Position numbers and translations under genes: made by a program. Shown one piece after another: positions 2,478 to 8,484 of a stretch of 10,901 nt of DNA. Source of the DNA: Candidatus Bathyarchaeia archaeon (GTDB lineage: Archaea; Thermoproteota; Bathyarchaeia; Bathyarchaeales; Bathycorpusculaceae); NCBI GenBank assembly GCA_037481775.1, contig JBBFKZ010000031.1:1-10901 (forward strand), read 5' to 3'. The notes beneath the pieces were generated by a model. That model was not told the DNA's origin, did no database searches, and saw only the letters and a list, made by a program, of their open reading frames with translations. How positions within the stretch are numbered: position 1 is the stretch's first letter; every line of letters starts with the position of its first letter.

Positions 2478-2579
2478 CCAGTAAAGTGGAAACCCGCGGA
2501 TTTATCCGTTTTGATACTTTCAGGCACTACGCTTAAATGCAGACGCTTTTCCCTTCTCTACTCAAAAAGGCGAGGCAGA

Positions 2580-3542
2580 ATGAGGAAAACTTGCAAGCCT
2601 GTTATTGTTGTTCACGGCGGCGCGGGCACTTGGGATTTAGCACGCAGTCAAGCAGCGCTAAAAAGCGTCAAAGAAGCCGCGGAAACGGGTTTTAACACAA
2701 TGCATACGGGCGGAACGGCAGTTGATGCTGTTGTTGAAGCCGTCGCGCTTATGGAGGACTCGGGCAACTTTAACGCTGGCTGCGGTTCAGCACTGAATGT
2801 AGAAAAGCGCGTAGAGATGGAAGCTTCAGTGATGGATGGCGCGACGCTGCAGGCAGGTGCCGTGGGGCTTTTAAGCGACGTGCGGAATCCAGTGCGTTTG
2901 GCACGGGTTGTGATGGAGAAAACGGATCATGTTTTCGTCGTAGGCAAAGGCGCTGAGGAATTAGCTCAGATTTTCGGTTTAGAAAGGCGTGAAGCCGTCA
3001 CTGCGGCGCAGCTTGAACGTTACGAAGCACAGCTGAAGAGTCTCCTCGCCGGTAGCGGCTATCTGCCACGGCTGGCGGATTTGGTTAAGGCGCATCCTGA
3101 AGTTTTTCAACTTGAAACCGTGGGCGCAGTGGCATTGGACAGCGCCGGTAATGTGGCTGCTGCAACATCCACTGGCGGGTTCCCGCTGAAACTGGCTGGC
3201 AGAATAGGTGATTCGCCTTCAATTGGATGTGGCACTTATGCGGATAACCGTTCCGGAGCATGCTCTGCATCAGGCGTAGGCGAAGTAGCAATCAGACTTG
3301 TACTGGCTAAAACCGTCTGCGACTACATTAGGAAAGGGAGGTCACCGCAGAAAGCTGTTGAAGCAGCAGTGGCGCTCATAAAGGAGCGTATCCCGAATGT
3401 TTACAATGTCATGGGTTTGATTGCGGTTGACGTTAACGGGAGAATAGGCGCTGCACATAGCACGACTAATCTCTGTTGGGCTTACATGACCGCGGCGCTT
3501 GAGGAGCCGGTGGCTTCGCTTAAAGCCAAATTTGTAGAGTGA
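2580..3542 (+). CDS. iaaA: Isoaspartyl peptidase / plant-type L-asparaginase (Ntn hydrolase)
   Basis: VIVVHGGAG, FNAGCGS, EMEASVMDG, autocleavage/nucleophile site E|TVGAVALD, ATSTGG, GRIGDSP. Start moved to ATG 2580 after AGGCGAGG. Confidence 0.93.
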   Translation: MRKTCKPVIVVHGGAGTWDLARSQAALKSVKEAAETGFNTMHTGGTAVDAVVEAVALMEDSGNFNAGCGSALNVEKRVEMEASVMDGATLQAGAVGLLSDVRNPVRLARVVMEKTDHVFVVGKGAEELAQIFGLERREAVTAAQLERYEAQLKSLLAGSGYLPRLADLVKAHPEVFQLETVGAVALDSAGNVAAATSTGGFPLKLAGRIGDSPSIGCGTYADNRSGACSASGVGEVAIRLVLAKTVCDYIRKGRSPQKAVEAAVALIKERIPNVYNVMGLIAVDVNGRIGAAHSTTNLCWAYMTAALEEPVASLKAKFVE

Positions 3543-3624
3543 AAAAGTTTTCAGAGATGAATAATGACGCAGAAAACAGCCTTTTTGTTTGTGCTTCCAC
3601 TTGAGAATACGACATTTGACGAAT

Positions 3625-3637
3625 GAAAATGTTTAAA
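3625..3637 (+). promoter_or_regulatory. BRE/TATA promoter of the acidic micropeptide gene
   Basis: GAAAATG-TTTAAA, predicting a TSS near 3660, just upstream of the leader hairpin and SD. Confidence 0.55.
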
Positions 3638-3678
3638 GCGCGCTATTGTAAAGCTACACTACCACTCGAGCCCGTAAG

Positions 3679-3686
3679 GGAGGTGA
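3679..3686 (+). promoter_or_regulatory. Full-consensus Shine-Dalgarno site GGAGGTGA
   Basis: GGAGGTGA lies 6 nt before ATG 3693 and is the strongest SD I noticed in the window. Confidence 0.8.
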
Positions 3687-3692
3687 AAAGGA

Positions 3693-3761
3693 ATGATATT
3701 CGAAGAGGACGAGGAATGGGAAGAAATTGAAGATGAAGAATGGGAAGAAGAAGAATGGTAA
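3693..3761 (+). CDS. 22-aa hyper-acidic Trp-repeat micropeptide MIFEEDEEWEEIEDEEWEEEEW, function unknown
   Basis: ATG..TAA ORF with perfect SD, upstream TATA and downstream terminator-like element. The two EDEEWEE copies differ only by three synonymous third-position changes. Confidence 0.75.
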   Translation: MIFEEDEEWEEIEDEEWEEEEW

Positions 3762-3773
3762 TCAAAAAATGAT

Positions 3774-3801
3774 TGTGAAAAACTTTTTACATCTTTCTTT
3801 C
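3774..3801 (+). terminator. Putative terminator after the micropeptide
   Basis: TGTGAAA-AACT-TTTTACA hairpin containing a T5 run, followed by TCTTTCTTTC. Confidence 0.5.
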
Positions 3802-3934
3802 GTATGTTCAATGCAGTTTTCTGCGCGATGATTTTTTGCGCCTAACTAGCCCAAGACCAAACAGGCTAAACGCATATTTTAAACAATCAAGAGAAGCAGC
3901 TCATGGCTATTTTTACTTTCCAGCGAAGTTACTG

Positions 3935-3940
3935 TTTATA
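3935..3940 (+). promoter_or_regulatory. Putative TATA box of ABCE1
   Basis: TTTATA 35 nt upstream of ATG 3976. No clear SD, implying a very short leader. Confidence 0.4.
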
Positions 3941-3975
3941 ACCAAGCAGCCTTCATTATTGAAGATGAGTTTGAT

Positions 3976-5769
3976 ATGACCCGCGTTGCCGTATTAGACG
4001 CCGACAAATGCAAAGTAAAAAAGTGCAATCAACTATGCGTGAGTTTCTGCCCTATGGTGCGCAGCCGCGTGGAAGCCATACGAATAGAAGGCAACAAAGC
4101 CGTGATCTCGGAAAGACTGTGCAGCGGCTGCGGCATCTGCGTCAAAAAATGCCCCTTCCAAGCCATCAGCATAGTTAACCTTCCAGACGAGCTGGAGAAA
4201 GACTGCAGCCACCGCTTCAGCGCAAACAGCTTCAAACTTTTCAGGTTGCCCACGCCTTCGCCGGGCATGGTTTTGGGCTTGCTGGGGCAAAACGGCATAG
4301 GCAAAACCACCACTCTGAAGGTGCTTTCAGGCGAGTTAAAACCTAACTTGGGCCGATACAATAGCCCGCCTGAGTGGGAAGAGATAATCCAGTACTATAG
4401 GGGTTCAACCCTACAAGATTACTTCCAGAGAATGAGCCAAAGCAATCTTAAGGTGGTGCATAAGCCGCAGTACGTGGACAGGATTCCAAAGGTTATTTCA
4501 GGCAAAGTCGGCGAACTTCTTGAAAAAGTAGATGAAAGAAAAATCTTAGATAAACTTGTCGCGGACCTTGAACTCAAGAAGATTTGGGACCGCCCATTGG
4601 ATGTGCTCAGCGGCGGCGAGCTTCAGCGCGTCGCGGTGGCAGCTGCTCTAAGCCGCGAGGCTGACGTGTACCTCTTTGATGAACCATCCAGCTACTTGGA
4701 TGTTAAGCAGCGGCTGCTGGTAGCCAAGGCCATAAGAAGCCTGAAACTTCAGCAGAAAACCATAATCGTAGCTGAACATGACTTAGCCATAATCGATTAC
4801 TTGTCGGATCAGATCTGCATTTTTTACGGTCAGCCCGGCGTCTACGGCGTAGTTTCCCACGTACATGGCGTACGCACAGGCATAAACATTTACCTGCAAG
4901 GTTACATTCCAGACGAGAACATGCTGTTCAGGAGAGAAGCCATAATCTTCCATGAGAAACCGCCTGCGGTGGGCGCAAGCGGCGGCGAACTCTTGCTGCG
5001 ATGGGGACGTATCGAGAAAACATTTGAGGGGTTCAAGCTTGTTGCTGAGCCGGGCGAAATAAGACGTGGCGAAATCATCGGCATTATGGGGCCGAATGGC
5101 ATTGGGAAAACAACCTTTGTGAAGATTTTGGCTGGGCTTGAAGAGACAGATGACAAGCAGAAGCTGGGCACGTTGACTGTAAGCTACAAGCCACAGTACA
5201 TCGCTGCAGACTACGCGGGCACTGTTCAAGAACTTCTCATGGGCATTGCCAAAGAAACCTTTACATCAAGCTGGTACAAAACCGAGATTCTCCAACCCTT
5301 AAAGATTAACCTACTTCTGGACAGATGTGTCATGGAGCTCAGCGGTGGAGAGTTGCAGAAAGTCGCAATCGCCGCCTGCTTATCGCGTAAAGCAGACTTG
5401 CTTCTGCTGGATGAGCCCAGCGCTTACTTGGACGTGGAGGAGAGGCTGAATATGGCGCGCACGTTACGGCGCGTTGTTGAAGCAAATAATGTGCCTGCTT
5501 TCGTCGTTGAGCATGACGTTGTAGCCCAAGACTTCATTGCTGACCGAATCATGGTTTTCAGCGGAGAACCAGGCGTGAAAGGCATCGCGAATGCGCCTAC
5601 AAGCCTGCGAAAGGGAATGAATGCTTTCTTAAAGGAAATGAATGTTACGTTCCGCCGAGATCCTGTTACGAGGCGGCCAAGAGTTAACAAGGAAGGCTCA
5701 AAACTTGACACAATCCAGAAACAAATTGGTGAATATTATTATACACGTTTGAAGCAAAAACAAGAGTAG
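3976..5769 (+). CDS. rli1: ABCE1/Rli1 ribosome recycling ATPase
   Basis: N-terminal two-[4Fe-4S] domain (CKVKKCNQLCVSFCP; CSGCGICVKKCP), two NBDs (GQNGIGKTT, GPNGIGKTT), two LSGGELQ signatures, two DEPS Walker B motifs, and hinge TFRRD...RPRVNK.GS..D. Confidence 0.98.
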   Translation: MTRVAVLDADKCKVKKCNQLCVSFCPMVRSRVEAIRIEGNKAVISERLCSGCGICVKKCPFQAISIVNLPDELEKDCSHRFSANSFKLFRLPTPSPGMVLGLLGQNGIGKTTTLKVLSGELKPNLGRYNSPPEWEEIIQYYRGSTLQDYFQRMSQSNLKVVHKPQYVDRIPKVISGKVGELLEKVDERKILDKLVADLELKKIWDRPLDVLSGGELQRVAVAAALSREADVYLFDEPSSYLDVKQRLLVAKAIRSLKLQQKTIIVAEHDLAIIDYLSDQICIFYGQPGVYGVVSHVHGVRTGINIYLQGYIPDENMLFRREAIIFHEKPPAVGASGGELLLRWGRIEKTFEGFKLVAEPGEIRRGEIIGIMGPNGIGKTTFVKILAGLEETDDKQKLGTLTVSYKPQYIAADYAGTVQELLMGIAKETFTSSWYKTEILQPLKINLLLDRCVMELSGGELQKVAIAACLSRKADLLLLDEPSAYLDVEERLNMARTLRRVVEANNVPAFVVEHDVVAQDFIADRIMVFSGEPGVKGIANAPTSLRKGMNAFLKEMNVTFRRDPVTRRPRVNKEGSKLDTIQKQIGEYYYTRLKQKQE

Positions 5770-5885: not shown

Positions 5886-7409
5886 GTGGCGCAAGCAACC
5901 TTTGAGGAAATCAGTGCATCCGACTTTTTCTACCGCAACCGCGACATCGCAGGCTTCACTAACCCGTCAAGAGCCATTTTCGCGGCGATCCGCGAGCTAG
6001 TGGAGAACTCGTTGGATGCGGCTGAAAGCCAGAAGATACCGCCAGACATTTATGTGCGCCTCTCTTTTGAAGGCGAAGCCAGCAAAGACACTCAGATTTA
6101 CAAGTTAAGAGTCGAAGACAACGGTTGCGGCATTCACCCTCGGTTTATTCCCTCAGCCTTTGGGCAAGTCCTTTACGGTTCCAAGTACAAGCTGAAACAG
6201 ATGCGGGGCACGTTTGGCTTAGGCGGCAAAATGGCTGTGCTGTACGGGCAGATAACAACGCACCAGCCAGCCTATGTTACCTCGAGCACTGGCCTGCCTA
6301 AGATTTACTCGTTTAAGCTGATGATTGACATTCAGCGTAACCGTCCCATAATTCTAGACCGCAAAGTGCTCATCAACAAGGAGCAGTGGCACGGCACAAT
6401 TGTAGAGTTCACTCTTGAAGGCGACTACTTGCGTGCTAGATCCAAAATTCTGGAGTATTTTAAGCAGACAGCCATGGTGAACCCATACGCGAATTTGACT
6501 TTTGTTGACCCGAAAGGCAGGCTTTACAAGTTTACGAGAGCGACCACGGAGATGCCTAACCCGCCGAAAGAAACCGAACCGCATCCCTACGGCGTTGACG
6601 TGGAGCTTCTACAGCGGCTTATTCAAGTAACTCCACATAAAAATATGCTGGATTTTCTGAAGCATCACTTTCACAGAGTCGGCGACGTAACTGCACAGAA
6701 GTTCCTGGAGTTCAGCGGGTTAAGCCCCTCCAAAAATCCTAAAAAACTTTCACATGAGGAAATTGTACGGCTAATGCATAACTTGAAGAAGTTTAAGGAT
6801 TTTCTGCCTCCTGATGCCAGCTGTCTATCGCCTCTAGGCGAAGAACTTCTAAAGGCTGGAATTTCGAAGGAGCTGAAACCTGAATATCTTGTTGTTCACC
6901 AACGCAAACCCGCAACTTACGCGGGCCACCCCTTCATCATCGAATTAGGCATTGCCTACGGTGGGGAGGTTCCGAGCAAAGGAAGCTTTGTAATCTACCG
7001 TTTCGCCAACCGGATTCCGCTGCTCTATGATGAAGCAAGCGATGTTTCATTTAGAGTGATAAACGCTATGAATTGGCGCAGATACAAGGTTTCGCTTGAC
7101 ATGCCCATCGCCATTGTGGTGCACATCTGCAGCACCAAAGTGCCCTACAAAACAGTTGGCAAAGAATTCATAGCAGACCGCCCTGAAGTTAGAAGGGAAA
7201 TAGCAAACGCGCTAAGGGAAGCAGCCCGTCAACTTCAGCATTTTCTGTCTAAGCGGGAGCATGTGGATAAGGAGCGCAAGCGTCTCGGCATTTTCGCGAA
7301 GTACCTTCCAAAGATTGCGCAGTTTTCCGCCAATCTCGCTGGAAAAGAAAAACTTCCGGATATAGATAAATTGTTAAAGAGTGTGCAAAAATATGGAGAA
7401 GAAACGTAA
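5886..7409 (+). CDS. top6B: DNA topoisomerase VI subunit B
   Basis: GHKL motifs ELVENSLDA, VEDNGCG and RGTFGLG, H2TH region, transducer RFANRIPLLY and KVPYKTVGKE. GTG start with SD GGAGG. Confidence 0.98.
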   Translation: MAQATFEEISASDFFYRNRDIAGFTNPSRAIFAAIRELVENSLDAAESQKIPPDIYVRLSFEGEASKDTQIYKLRVEDNGCGIHPRFIPSAFGQVLYGSKYKLKQMRGTFGLGGKMAVLYGQITTHQPAYVTSSTGLPKIYSFKLMIDIQRNRPIILDRKVLINKEQWHGTIVEFTLEGDYLRARSKILEYFKQTAMVNPYANLTFVDPKGRLYKFTRATTEMPNPPKETEPHPYGVDVELLQRLIQVTPHKNMLDFLKHHFHRVGDVTAQKFLEFSGLSPSKNPKKLSHEEIVRLMHNLKKFKDFLPPDASCLSPLGEELLKAGISKELKPEYLVVHQRKPATYAGHPFIIELGIAYGGEVPSKGSFVIYRFANRIPLLYDEASDVSFRVINAMNWRRYKVSLDMPIAIVVHICSTKVPYKTVGKEFIADRPEVRREIANALREAARQLQHFLSKREHVDKERKRLGIFAKYLPKIAQFSANLAGKEKLPDIDKLLKSVQKYGEET

Positions 7410-8484
7410 GTATAGTGTAACCGAAAAGAAGAGTGAAGTTATAGGAAGCCTGCAGGCTTTCGGAGCTAAAATTTATGAGCAAATGGAACAAGGAGATTTC
7501 CCCTCTATTGCAATGCCCAGTCGCTCTACTCAGAACATCTATTACGATCAGGCGCTTCGCCAGTTTATTTTAGGCGATAAAAGCGTGCGCAGAAGCGCCA
7601 GGAACATTCGCCACGTGAAGCCTTTCACGCAGCTTGTTTGGGTTGCAAGATTTTCACATGAGCTTACCACGCAACGCAAGACCTCCACTTTAAGAGACGT
7701 GTACTATTCTGCTCAAGCCTACGAAATGACCTTCAAGGATCAGCAGGAGTCCGACAACATCATTACGGACTTGGAAACAGTTCTCGGTCTCTCACGGGAA
7801 GACTTCAACATTTTCCCCGAGGAACGCTCCGCAGTCTTCGGAGACCTCACCATAGAGTACACAGTGCCCGGCTACGAGGGCAAAACCCTAAACCTAACCA
7901 CACATCCAGACGGCGTGTTAATCGGTCCAGCGTTGACGTCAGCAGAATTTGTAAGCACCACAGCCGACAAAATCATAGCTATAGAGAAAGGCGGTTTATT
8001 CACACGGTTCATCGAGGAAAATGTGCATAAGAAATTTAATGCGCTGCTGGTGCTCACCGCCGGACAAGCGCCTAGAGCGACGAGGCACTTCATTAGGCGG
8101 CTGCACACGGAATTAAATCTGCCCGTTTTCATCTTCACAGACGGTGACCCATGGGGAATGCACATTGCCATGGTTATCATAAGCGGCTCTGCGAATGCGG
8201 CTCACCTGCGGGAGCTAAACACGCCTGACGCGAAATGGAGCGGCGTCTGGGCAACAGACATCGTCAACTATAAGCTGCCAACGGATCCGCTGGACGAGGT
8301 GGACATTAAGCGGCTTTATGAATTGCAGAAGGATCCGCGGTATAAGGAGGATCCATTGTGGCAGAGGGAAATCAAAACATTTCTGAAAATCAAGCGTAAG
8401 GCTGAGCAAGAGGCCTTCAGCCGCTACGGGTTAACCTATATCGTGGATGAGTACTTGCCTGCAAAACTTGAAGAGACAAAGTAA
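7393..8484 (+). CDS. top6A: DNA topoisomerase VI subunit A
   Basis: Catalytic-Tyr motif STLRDVYY, TOPRIM motifs IEKGG and TDGDPWG, KAEQEA. ATG 7393 is preferred over GTG 7381 and gives a 17-nt overlap with top6B. Confidence 0.97.
   Translation: MEKKRKYSVTEKKSEVIGSLQAFGAKIYEQMEQGDFPSIAMPSRSTQNIYYDQALRQFILGDKSVRRSARNIRHVKPFTQLVWVARFSHELTTQRKTSTLRDVYYSAQAYEMTFKDQQESDNIITDLETVLGLSREDFNIFPEERSAVFGDLTIEYTVPGYEGKTLNLTTHPDGVLIGPALTSAEFVSTTADKIIAIEKGGLFTRFIEENVHKKFNALLVLTAGQAPRATRHFIRRLHTELNLPVFIFTDGDPWGMHIAMVIISGSANAAHLRELNTPDAKWSGVWATDIVNYKLPTDPLDEVDIKRLYELQKDPRYKEDPLWQREIKTFLKIKRKAEQEAFSRYGLTYIVDEYLPAKLEETK

Follow-up and report, generated by a model that had tools for sequence, protein, structure and literature searches.

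The stretch of DNA analyzed here (the window) comprises 10,901 nucleotides (nt) of a Candidatus Bathyarchaeia archaeon genome (contig JBBFKZ010000031.1), and it contains, 5′ of the gene for the ribosome recycling factor ABCE1, an open reading frame (ORF) of 22 codons plus TAA at positions 3693-3761 of the + strand. This micro-ORF, whose translation is MIFEEDEEWEEIEDEEWEEEEW, encodes a peptide in which 15 of the 22 residues are Asp or Glu and three are Trp, with no basic residue and no Cys, and homologous ORFs are intact in relatives. From comparative sequence evidence, we conclude that the micro-gene is real, ancient, unannotated, and tightly linked to ABCE1, and that the micro-ORF is almost certainly a conserved protein-coding gene. 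Archaea and eukaryotes universally possess ABCE1, an essential factor, and the micropeptide may be an overlooked player that takes part in or regulates ribosome recycling, or the homeostasis of polycations and ribosomes. The case also cleanly illustrates conserved coding sequence beneath gene-calling length limits: this gene of ~70 nt, kept across much of the phylum Thermoproteota, which includes the genetically tractable Sulfolobaceae, has been missed by all annotation.

The micro-ORF sits within a compact unit, which we compared across a catalogue of 176 distinct micro-ORFs (133 unique peptides) and in an alignment (A1) of nine rows chosen by DNA similarity only, namely one decayed copy and eight functional ones, the latter drawn from the genus and from two further genera. 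A predicted promoter resembling a B recognition element (BRE) and TATA box lies at 3625-3637 (gaaaatgtttaaa; gaaaatgTTTAAA), with TTTAAA at 3632-3637. Directly 5′ of it is the motif TGACGAA (3617-3623), a putative regulator site that is invariant or nearly so in A1, whose conservation extends past the genus to other genera, including the more distant relatives L019 and L035, and that is combined with a TATA box at only two places in the organism's own genome. Archaeal transcription starts sit at a characteristic distance from the TATA box, and because the block GTAAAGCTACACTACCAC (3648-3665), conserved within the genus in A1, fits that distance, it is likely the transcription-start region. The Shine-Dalgarno (SD) site GGAGGTGA (3679-3686) lies 6 nt 5′ of the ATG at 3693, and a T-rich, terminator-like tract, ctttttacatctttctttcg (cttttta catctttctttcg), occupies 3783-3802; oligo-T termination is established in archaea. 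All of these elements are on the + strand, and their promoter, SD, and terminator roles are predicted ones. Across the catalogue, a TATA-like motif was found 25-100 nt 5′ of the start in 105 of 174 loci, with a cluster 55-64 nt from the start codon (76 matches, two bins), and at least five consecutive T residues within 90 nt 3′ of the micro-ORF in 145 of 173. An SD-like site lies 3-16 nt 5′ of the start in 163 of the 176 micro-ORFs, a share that is partly ascertained, as the subset from a wide genome scan was retrieved with GGAGGTG. The BRE/TATA box, SD, hyper-acidic 22-residue ORF, and terminator-like element listed in a preliminary description of this DNA are thus all present in the sequence as described.

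Conservation in A1 is concentrated in these parts. Mean pairwise identity was 0.91 for the block of TGACGAA and BRE/TATA (3617-3640), 0.67 for the spacer between TATA and SD, 0.97 for the SD, 0.89 for the ORF, 0.40 for the 22 nt 3′ of the stop, 0.82 for the T-tract, and 0.38 beyond it. Of the 22 columns at each codon position of the ORF, the eight functional copies varied in 2 at the first position, 2 at the second, and 10 at the third; synonymous variation alone was seen in eight codons, 11 were invariant, and three changed the residue (codon 2, I/V; codon 12, E/F/G/I; codon 17, W/S in one genome). Within the window's own ORF, two 21-nt repeats (3705-3725 and 3729-3749) each encode EDEEWEE and differ at three third positions only; the earlier suggestion of protein-level selection, which rested on these synonymous differences, agrees with the pattern in A1. 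The 433-nt intergenic region, used as a query, found matches in 31 of 41 related genomes (the own genome counted among the 41). Conservation reached farthest in the SD and ORF: outside the genus, matching was confined to query positions 137-219, which are window positions 3679-3761, exactly the SD plus ORF. Nineteen relatives' loci contained 18 intact homologous ORFs, the start of the remaining one (L006) being masked by N and its remainder intact. Sixteen further matched places yielded 12 complete micro-ORFs with a terminal Trp, one that ends WEDEE (L035), one truncated where its contig stops (L026), a fragment of a Zn-ribbon fusion (L024), and a decayed second copy (L023). SD, start, and frame, whose loss in relatives, like frame-breaking indels, the preliminary description had named as evidence against it, are all conserved, as is the stop, and its central claim of a self-contained, conserved protein-coding micro-gene holds: the unit has its own conserved box, SD, ORF, and T-tract, and is intact in relatives.

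We considered whether the element is not a protein at all, its frame being incidental to a DNA repeat or to a small RNA rich in purines, and regard this as extremely unlikely. The GAA/GAG sequence is of low complexity, and in the minimum free energy fold the purine run can pair with a downstream CUUUCUUUC tract. The fold, however, was no better than that of shuffled sequences (z = +0.86; 160 of 200 shuffles folded as well), and Rfam, searched at E up to 1, gave no match for the region. Together with the third-position variation, this argues that the ORF is selected as a protein-coding sequence. Different families retain the start, SD, frame, and stop, the third-position variation includes changes from GAR to GAY (Glu to Asp) while non-acidic changes in A1 are confined to three codons, and the TGG codons are kept. 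The decayed copy, L023 (G018:C1 ~729,175-729,323, - strand), is a second copy of the whole unit in which the promoter box and SD are kept and the ORF, after which the sequence reads N, is broken by in-frame stops, so that a duplicate decays by way of stops. Chance is also a poor source for such an ORF: the own genome (1.82 Mb, 45.5% GC) has 1481 ORFs of 10-60 amino acids behind an SD-like site, just two of which consist of at least 50% Asp/Glu, and Trp is present only in that of the window, which is single-copy. Contigs assembled from four DNA runs were identical across the ORF wherever they came from the same organism. A variant strain, X6, carried five substitutions and two indels, all outside 3693-3761, a distribution that is not significant given that the ORF makes up 15% of the stretch, and the high depth over 3708-3767 in the DNA runs stems from homologous ORFs of other organisms.

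The catalogued peptides share a proposed grammar. They are 18-53 residues long (mode 22) with a net charge of -9 to -34 (median -16), and their composition without Met1 is 64% Glu, 15% Trp, 8% Asp, and 3% Phe, an extreme that published work predicts to be hard to translate. A bulky or hydrophobic N-cap (MF, MIF, MVF, MIWL, MPIWY, and MKWLL among others) is followed by acidic runs mostly of 3-5 residues (mode 4, maximum 12), which are separated predominantly by a single W (270 cases), then by G, F, WW, and WP. Each peptide has 2-7 Trp residues, with one exception, and the last four residues are EEEW in 162 of 176. The start codon is ATG in 112, GTG in 36, and TTG in 28. The peptide of the window fits this grammar in its bulky cap, its acidic runs with single W, its EEEW before the stop, and its own SD.

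Homologous ORFs were present in every batch of relatives examined, both within Bathyarchaeia, the class of the window, and in other Thermoproteota, the phylum to which systematic sampling was directed. A scan of 185,579 species' genomes with the pattern GGAGGTG-N45-75-EEEW-stop gave at least 120 loci. Among the matches listed (120 loci), 97 have an acidic-Trp micro-ORF, nearly all in Bathyarchaeota, Bathyarchaeia, or Bathycorpusculum records; one, L131, is labeled Desulfurococcaceae and has an ABCE1 45% identical to that of the window. The other 23 of these listed matches are 19 bacterial chance matches without such an ORF and four Bathyarchaeia variants that the filter left out (L054, L076, L106, and L143). 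We then found that 139 of 401 Thermoproteota genomes match [DE]4-W-TAA/TGA, compared with ~30 for a reversed control. Some families are rich in the pattern (f27, 25/32; f30, 18/23; f36, 10/15; f22, 8/16) and others poor (f21, 1/56; f34, 1/24; f25, 1/17), and these counts are underestimates because the pattern leaves out TAG stops and other endings, as exemplified by a genome of f25 (G046) with MSEDFGEEEEEEEEWEEEEEDWEEDWEEEELEEEW 57 nt 5′ of ABCE1. The 40 places examined of ~150 listed, in which each family outside the class was represented by one to several, comprised 33 micro-ORFs, two Zn-ribbon fusions, and five chance matches within long ORFs. The genomes of f36 are Sulfolobaceae-like: against PDB entries 6tmf_d and 3ozx, which we take to be the ABCE1 of Saccharolobus solfataricus, their ABCE1 reaches 846-1036 bits, and a relaxed pattern recovered an ORF 41-48 nt 5′ of ABCE1 in three of five further f36 genomes. 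Viral contigs scanned for W-EEEE-W-stop gave no matches. Judged by these sequence matches, the micro-gene is ancient and spread across many lineages of one phylum.

The pattern searches and synteny analysis that the preliminary description had proposed as a check gave a recurrent ORF with a recurrent neighbor: 142 of the 176 micro-ORFs have ABCE1 3′ of them and in the same orientation. The gap between the two ranges from 37 to 2083 nt (median 128), is at most 260 nt in 119, and falls to 37-48 nt in Sulfolobaceae-like loci. Within the subset from the wide genome scan, ABCE1 is 3′ in 90 of 97, and in six of the other seven the sequence ends first. A block of phosphoribosyltransferase, CGI-121, THUMP (- strand), peptide, and ABCE1 is common to Bathyarchaeia and f27, which belongs to another class, and the pair of peptide and ABCE1 is kept where the 5′ gene is instead a transposase fragment, a ribose-5-phosphate isomerase, a 2-hydroxyacid dehydrogenase, or an ABC ATPase. 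ABCE1 commonly has a promoter-like box of its own; in the window this is TTTATAA at 3935-3941 (+ strand), 41 nt 5′ of the ABCE1 ATG, and the surrounding part (window 3917-3973; query 375-431) forms a conserved segment of its own within the genus. In 90 of the 119 gaps, a TATA-like motif is located 18-65 nt 5′ of where ABCE1 starts, with a peak at 35-44 nt, some of these matches being due to chance because the gaps are A/T-rich. Departures from the simple pair occur: in f27 (L188-L194), a small gene for an RPB9/TFS-like Zn ribbon (PF02150) with an acidic C terminus lies between the micro-ORF and ABCE1, and in f22 (L207:3249-3572) such a gene is directly 5′ of ABCE1 with the micro-ORF in opposite orientation ~600-650 nt away. 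This RPB9/TFS-like protein did not reach the cut-off of either the TFS or the TFS4 model. Family f7 has extra micro-ORF paralogues away from ABCE1, and no ABCE1 among those inspected bears an acidic-Trp extension. The earlier idea that the peptide serves a neighboring machine is therefore backed by synteny for ABCE1, whose pairing with the peptide persists without the rest of the block, whereas nothing specific supports topo VI or the proteasome; the position of topo VI was left unexamined where the pair persists outside the block. Histones and Alba, also suggested as clients, likewise found no specific support, and we rejected a link to topo VI, the proteasome, or histones.

The same acidic-Trp sequence also occurs as part of a larger protein. 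In proteins of 90-92 residues, a long acidic-Trp tail with the end EEEEW is attached to a LysW-like Zn ribbon, which matches PF21344 (E 6.5e-7) and also FYDLN_acid; these proteins are encoded at L218:2830-3108 (+ strand) and in L219 (- strand, 90 residues), with a fragment in L024. Against the NCBIfam LysW model, the fusion scores 38.6, with a cut-off of 75. Each fusion is followed, 28-52 nt on, by a lysine-rich micro-ORF of 14-17 residues with an SD-like site (MAEKKPEKKGKKKK and relatives). Two loci of f7 (L166 and L163, in genomes G040 and G203) have a similar layout, the acidic micro-ORF being followed by the lysine-rich micro-ORFs MPKKGKKDKKSTKANKK and MGKKKGKKSKAQKEK, each with an SD-like site, and by their sequences these loci look like gene pairs for acidic and basic micropeptides. 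Over all five places (L163, L166, L218, L219, and L024), the lysine-rich micro-ORFs are 14-18 residues long, lie 28-52 nt 3′ of the acidic ORF or fusion, and have their own SD-like site, GGAGGTG in most. A separate Bathyarchaeia locus, L106, has an 18-residue, SD-preceded ORF, MCAKKKPAKKKEKKEEEW, that joins a lysine-rich stretch to an EEEW end.

We propose that the gene would be transcribed independently and translated efficiently and that its product would be an intrinsically disordered, polyanionic micropeptide acting in trans. Its acidic runs, each of 3-8 Glu/Asp and ended by a Trp, would mimic the phosphate backbone on a basic, nucleic-acid-binding surface, a partner suggested by the composition of the peptide, and its Trp side chains, above all the C-terminal Trp with its carboxylate, would serve as anchors; by analogy, this free C-terminal Trp, which is near-invariant, resembles the ends of hub tails, in which an aromatic side chain and a carboxylate fit into a pocket. 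The most probable target would be ABCE1 or its ribosomal docking site, because synteny points to ABCE1 or its working environment, and the consequence would be modulated ribosome splitting and recycling. Bulky residues near the peptidyl-transferase center counter the destabilization caused by acidic nascent chains in Escherichia coli, according to 10.1101/2021.02.02.429294, and for this reason the periodic bulky Trp residues and the bulky N-cap may let the ribosome complete so acidic a chain. Action in trans is favored by four features: the micro-gene's own box and T-tract, the TATA-like boxes of ABCE1, the fusion to a Zn ribbon, and convergent copies. These last are at least 11 loci in several families (L214, L215, L217, L226, L222, L211, L207, L210, L029, L037, and L017) in which the downstream ORF is convergent, four of these ORFs being supported by Pfam (PhoU twice, a methyltransferase, and URO-D), and they render a purely cis-acting leader unlikely. 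We infer the expression level, trans action, binding mode, and target of the peptide from such features; that the product acts in trans is probable, and the full explanation, a Trp-anchored polyanion acting in trans on ABCE1 or the translation machinery, is the best we have and falls just short of probable.

Several observations weigh against this proposal. Most loci were retrieved by patterns demanding W before the stop, which inflates the share of peptides with a terminal Trp (175 of 176), and loci found without such patterns end WEDEE (L035), WEDEEM (L247 and L248), or WEEEE (L242), so that a terminal Trp is not absolute; one functional copy (G018a) has Ser in place of the middle Trp. All six loci of f30 are without ABCE1 nearby, and in four of them (L195, L196, L197, and L199) the micro-ORF is instead 5′, on the same strand, of genes for an S-adenosylmethionine (AdoMet) decarboxylase (PF02675) and a SIS-domain protein, with a gap of 116-246 nt in L195, L197, and L199. 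Eight genomes examined by way of ABCE1 (G028, G038, G039, G035, G041, G058, G065, and G054) had no acidic ORF within 1.5 kb of it. Synteny with ABCE1 could in part be inherited gene order, and the same-strand 5′ position, extreme N-terminal acidity, and T-tract also fit a regulatory leader.

Such a leader or sensor, acting in cis, is the main rival, and we rate it as rather unlikely. It supposes that a chain acidic from residue 4 on destabilizes its own ribosome (intrinsic ribosome destabilization, IRD), or that termination at its stop requires recycling by ABCE1, and that the share of ribosomes that abort or are left unsplit sets read-through or re-initiation downstream; the controlled gene would be ABCE1 in most loci and AdoMet decarboxylase in f30, in a loop that would hold ribosome stability or recycling capacity in homeostasis. 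N-terminal consecutive acidic residues are reported to destabilize translating ribosomes in bacteria, yeast, and human cells (PMC12673854, PMC11282234, 10.1101/2021.02.02.429294, PMC9718836, PMC11162784), and the same IRD papers (PMC12673854, PMC11282234, 10.1101/2021.02.02.429294) describe MgtL as sensing through IRD and ribosome-bound ABC-F ATPases and recycling factors as countering it. The composition of the peptide fits the IRD inducers reported there (PMC12673854, 10.1101/2021.02.02.429294). Its position is equally suitable, being 5′ of ABCE1 on the same strand in the 142 loci noted above, at gaps down to 37-48 nt, or of AdoMet decarboxylase in four of six f30 loci, with a T-tract directly 3′ that resembles an attenuator. 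However, a same-strand gene to regulate is not universal: there is nothing downstream to regulate in the convergent loci, of which there are at least 11, and the micro-ORF of f22 is divergent from ABCE1. ABCE1 has its own TATA-like box in most gaps, the same tail is found on a Zn-ribbon protein, and neither a predicted leader RNA structure nor an Rfam match was obtained. The Trp spacing and C-terminal EEEW would be superfluous for a mere upstream ORF (uORF) dependent on recycling, and we found no demonstration of IRD in archaea in the literature covered. The trans-acting and leader readings are not mutually exclusive. They could be joined in a single gauge, in which the nascent chain would provoke IRD, and the ratio of aborted to completed translation would report how strongly the subunits associate (Mg2+, polyamines) and the capacity for recycling and set ABCE1 or AdoMet decarboxylase, while the finished peptide would act in trans on ABCE1 or the ribosome; we think this unlikely, but if true, it would be the first archaeal nascent-chain sensor described and would put the recycling factor universal to archaea and eukaryotes under autoregulation.

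Two further explanations retain a free peptide with another purpose. The peptide might buffer or chaperone polycations in general, binding polyamines, Mg2+, or lysine-rich peptides and proteins rather than ABCE1 specifically, and its strong negative charge, the AdoMet decarboxylase neighbor in f30, and the five places with a lysine-rich micro-ORF 28-52 nt 3′ speak for this. We nevertheless doubt it, as it leaves unexplained the phylum-wide adjacency to ABCE1 and the conserved Trp positions and terminal Trp; moreover, the lysine-rich partners occur in few families only, and the own genome has no ATG-started, SD-preceded lysine-rich micro-ORF. Alternatively, the acidic-Trp end might, by analogy with Lto1, dock on a factor that delivers Fe-S clusters to ABCE1. 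The conserved neighbor ABCE1 bears two 4Fe-4S clusters and the peptide ends in E-W. Fe-S loading of the yeast ABCE1 orthologue, Rli1, requires the adaptor Lto1 (Yae1-Lto1-Rli1), whose conserved C-terminal Trp binds the targeting complex of cytosolic iron-sulfur assembly (CIA) (PMC4523923), and CIA clients are recognized reportedly through a C-terminal tripeptide [LIM]-[DES]-[WF] (PMC10245660). In the 162 micro-ORFs that end E-E-W, however, positions 0 and -1 fit this tripeptide and position -2 (E rather than L/I/M) does not; the peptides have no deca-GX3 motif, which serves to pair with Yae1, and no ABCE1-binding module (2% Gly, no GX3 repeats), some variants lack the terminal Trp, and no Fe-S assembly gene was seen next to the peptide in the loci scanned. 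The targeting factors Cia1 and Met18 are eukaryotic. Because only the last two positions fit and the other Lto1 features are absent, we rate this adaptor as very unlikely.

The peptides matched no described family. We scanned six proteins against Pfam and NCBIfam, four micropeptides (that of the window and three of 26-41 residues) and two Zn-ribbon proteins; the latter two matched families and the four micropeptides did not (Pfam E up to 1). Exact sequences of ten micropeptides were absent (0/10) from a collection of ~15 billion predicted proteins, and therefore gene callers do not call these micro-ORFs, in line with the earlier statement that the ORF is below gene-calling cut-offs and without a named family. 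A HMMER search with a 49-residue member gave none of 1553 candidates at E ≤ 0.001, an uninformative result since low complexity defeats the search, and the best score in the ESM Atlas, 0.82, was below the useful range. A complex prediction of ABCE1 with the 35-residue member from L212, with alignments and without controls, scored 0.00, which is evidence neither way. The literature searched, which excluded most subscription journals and all supplements, describes no archaeal ABCE1 accessory peptide or leader and no acidic-Trp archaeal micropeptide, the small-ORF literature from Sulfolobus ribosome profiling included.

Comparison with named systems gives likenesses in principle. DSS1/Sem1, proposed as a parallel in the preliminary description, is a small, disordered, very acidic protein with Trp/Phe anchors that acts in trans as an adaptor or DNA mimic on basic surfaces, as the peptide would. 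The likeness is one of composition; eukaryotic DSS1 is ~70-90 residues long, has a C-terminal helix, and has no link to ABCE1, whereas the archaeal peptide has 18-53 residues and a Trp end, and neither the window peptide nor three other members matched PF05160 (DSS1_SEM1; Pfam, E up to 1). The binding partners of DSS1/Sem1 (PCI-domain proteins, BRCA2) are eukaryotic. LysW/ArgW is a tiny protein of archaea and Thermus whose acidic, Trp-containing C-terminal tail docks on basic enzyme surfaces, and a LysW-like Zn ribbon carries the acidic-W tail in L218 and L219. The window peptide itself has no Zn ribbon, no Cys, and no match to PF21344 or NF041070; LysW ends in Gly-Glu, the terminal Glu being its attachment point, and the micropeptide in Trp, and the neighbors are Asparaginase_2 and ABCE1 in place of lysX/argX. 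Acidic leaders and uORFs of the MgtL type are likewise very short, with an N-terminal acidic run, and lie 5′ on the same strand of a gene for ribosome stability or recycling or polyamines. Unlike them, the micro-gene has its own predicted promoter and T-tract, convergent copies, conservation over the whole peptide, and a fusion to a folded domain. The Lto1/CIA client tripeptide shares a C-terminal Trp after an acidic residue, in a system that serves ABCE1/Rli1; with position -2 unmatched, the deca-GX3 motif absent from the peptide, and the system eukaryotic, this is an analogy only. The tails of bacterial SSB and archaeal aP1 combine an acidic run with an aromatic or hydrophobic end whose side chain and carboxylate plug pockets, and the aP1 tail binds translation GTPases and ABCE1, but these tails belong to larger proteins with other end motifs, whereas here the whole gene product is the tail. 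Since the peptide lacks defining features of each of DSS1/Sem1, LysW, and IRD leaders, we file it as a new acidic-Trp micropeptide family of Thermoproteota without a described counterpart, nearest in principle to DSS1/Sem1, the LysW tail, or an IRD leader. As a separate candidate, a precursor of a ribosomally synthesized and post-translationally modified peptide or of a scaffold peptide was rejected, no modifying enzyme being conserved alongside.

The remaining genes of the window, assigned by Pfam, are those for proteasome alpha (1-495, - strand), phosphoribosyltransferase (620-1288), CGI-121 (1282-1848), a THUMP protein (1852-2397, - strand), and Asparaginase_2 (2511-3542), which precedes the micro-ORF; on the other side are ABCE1, also called RLI (3976-5769, + strand; Fer4_RLI, Fer4, and two ABC_tran domains), topo VI B and A (5886-8484), and aIF5B (9311 to the end). 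The Asparaginase_2 gene 5′ of the micro-ORF matches as two or three shifted pieces in L015 and L047, where it may be frameshifted or decaying, and several relatives lack it, the THUMP gene adjoining the micro-ORF there. A gene for a protein of ~189 residues is divergent from the micro-ORF in all six f30 loci (L195-L200; e.g., L197:3136-3702, + strand). The protein has no sequence match in Pfam, NCBIfam, or PDB and is not detectably the THUMP protein; its AlphaFold model is confident (predicted local distance difference test score, 88.6) and mostly beta, and has no Foldseek match in PDB at E ≤ 0.001, so that, going by the model, it may be a new fold or family. Finally, in L230 (G058:C2), the ABCE1 frame is 925 residues long, ~330 beyond the usual, and the insertion, which follows the second Fe-S motif and begins CLDPNTPVV, looks like a candidate intein.

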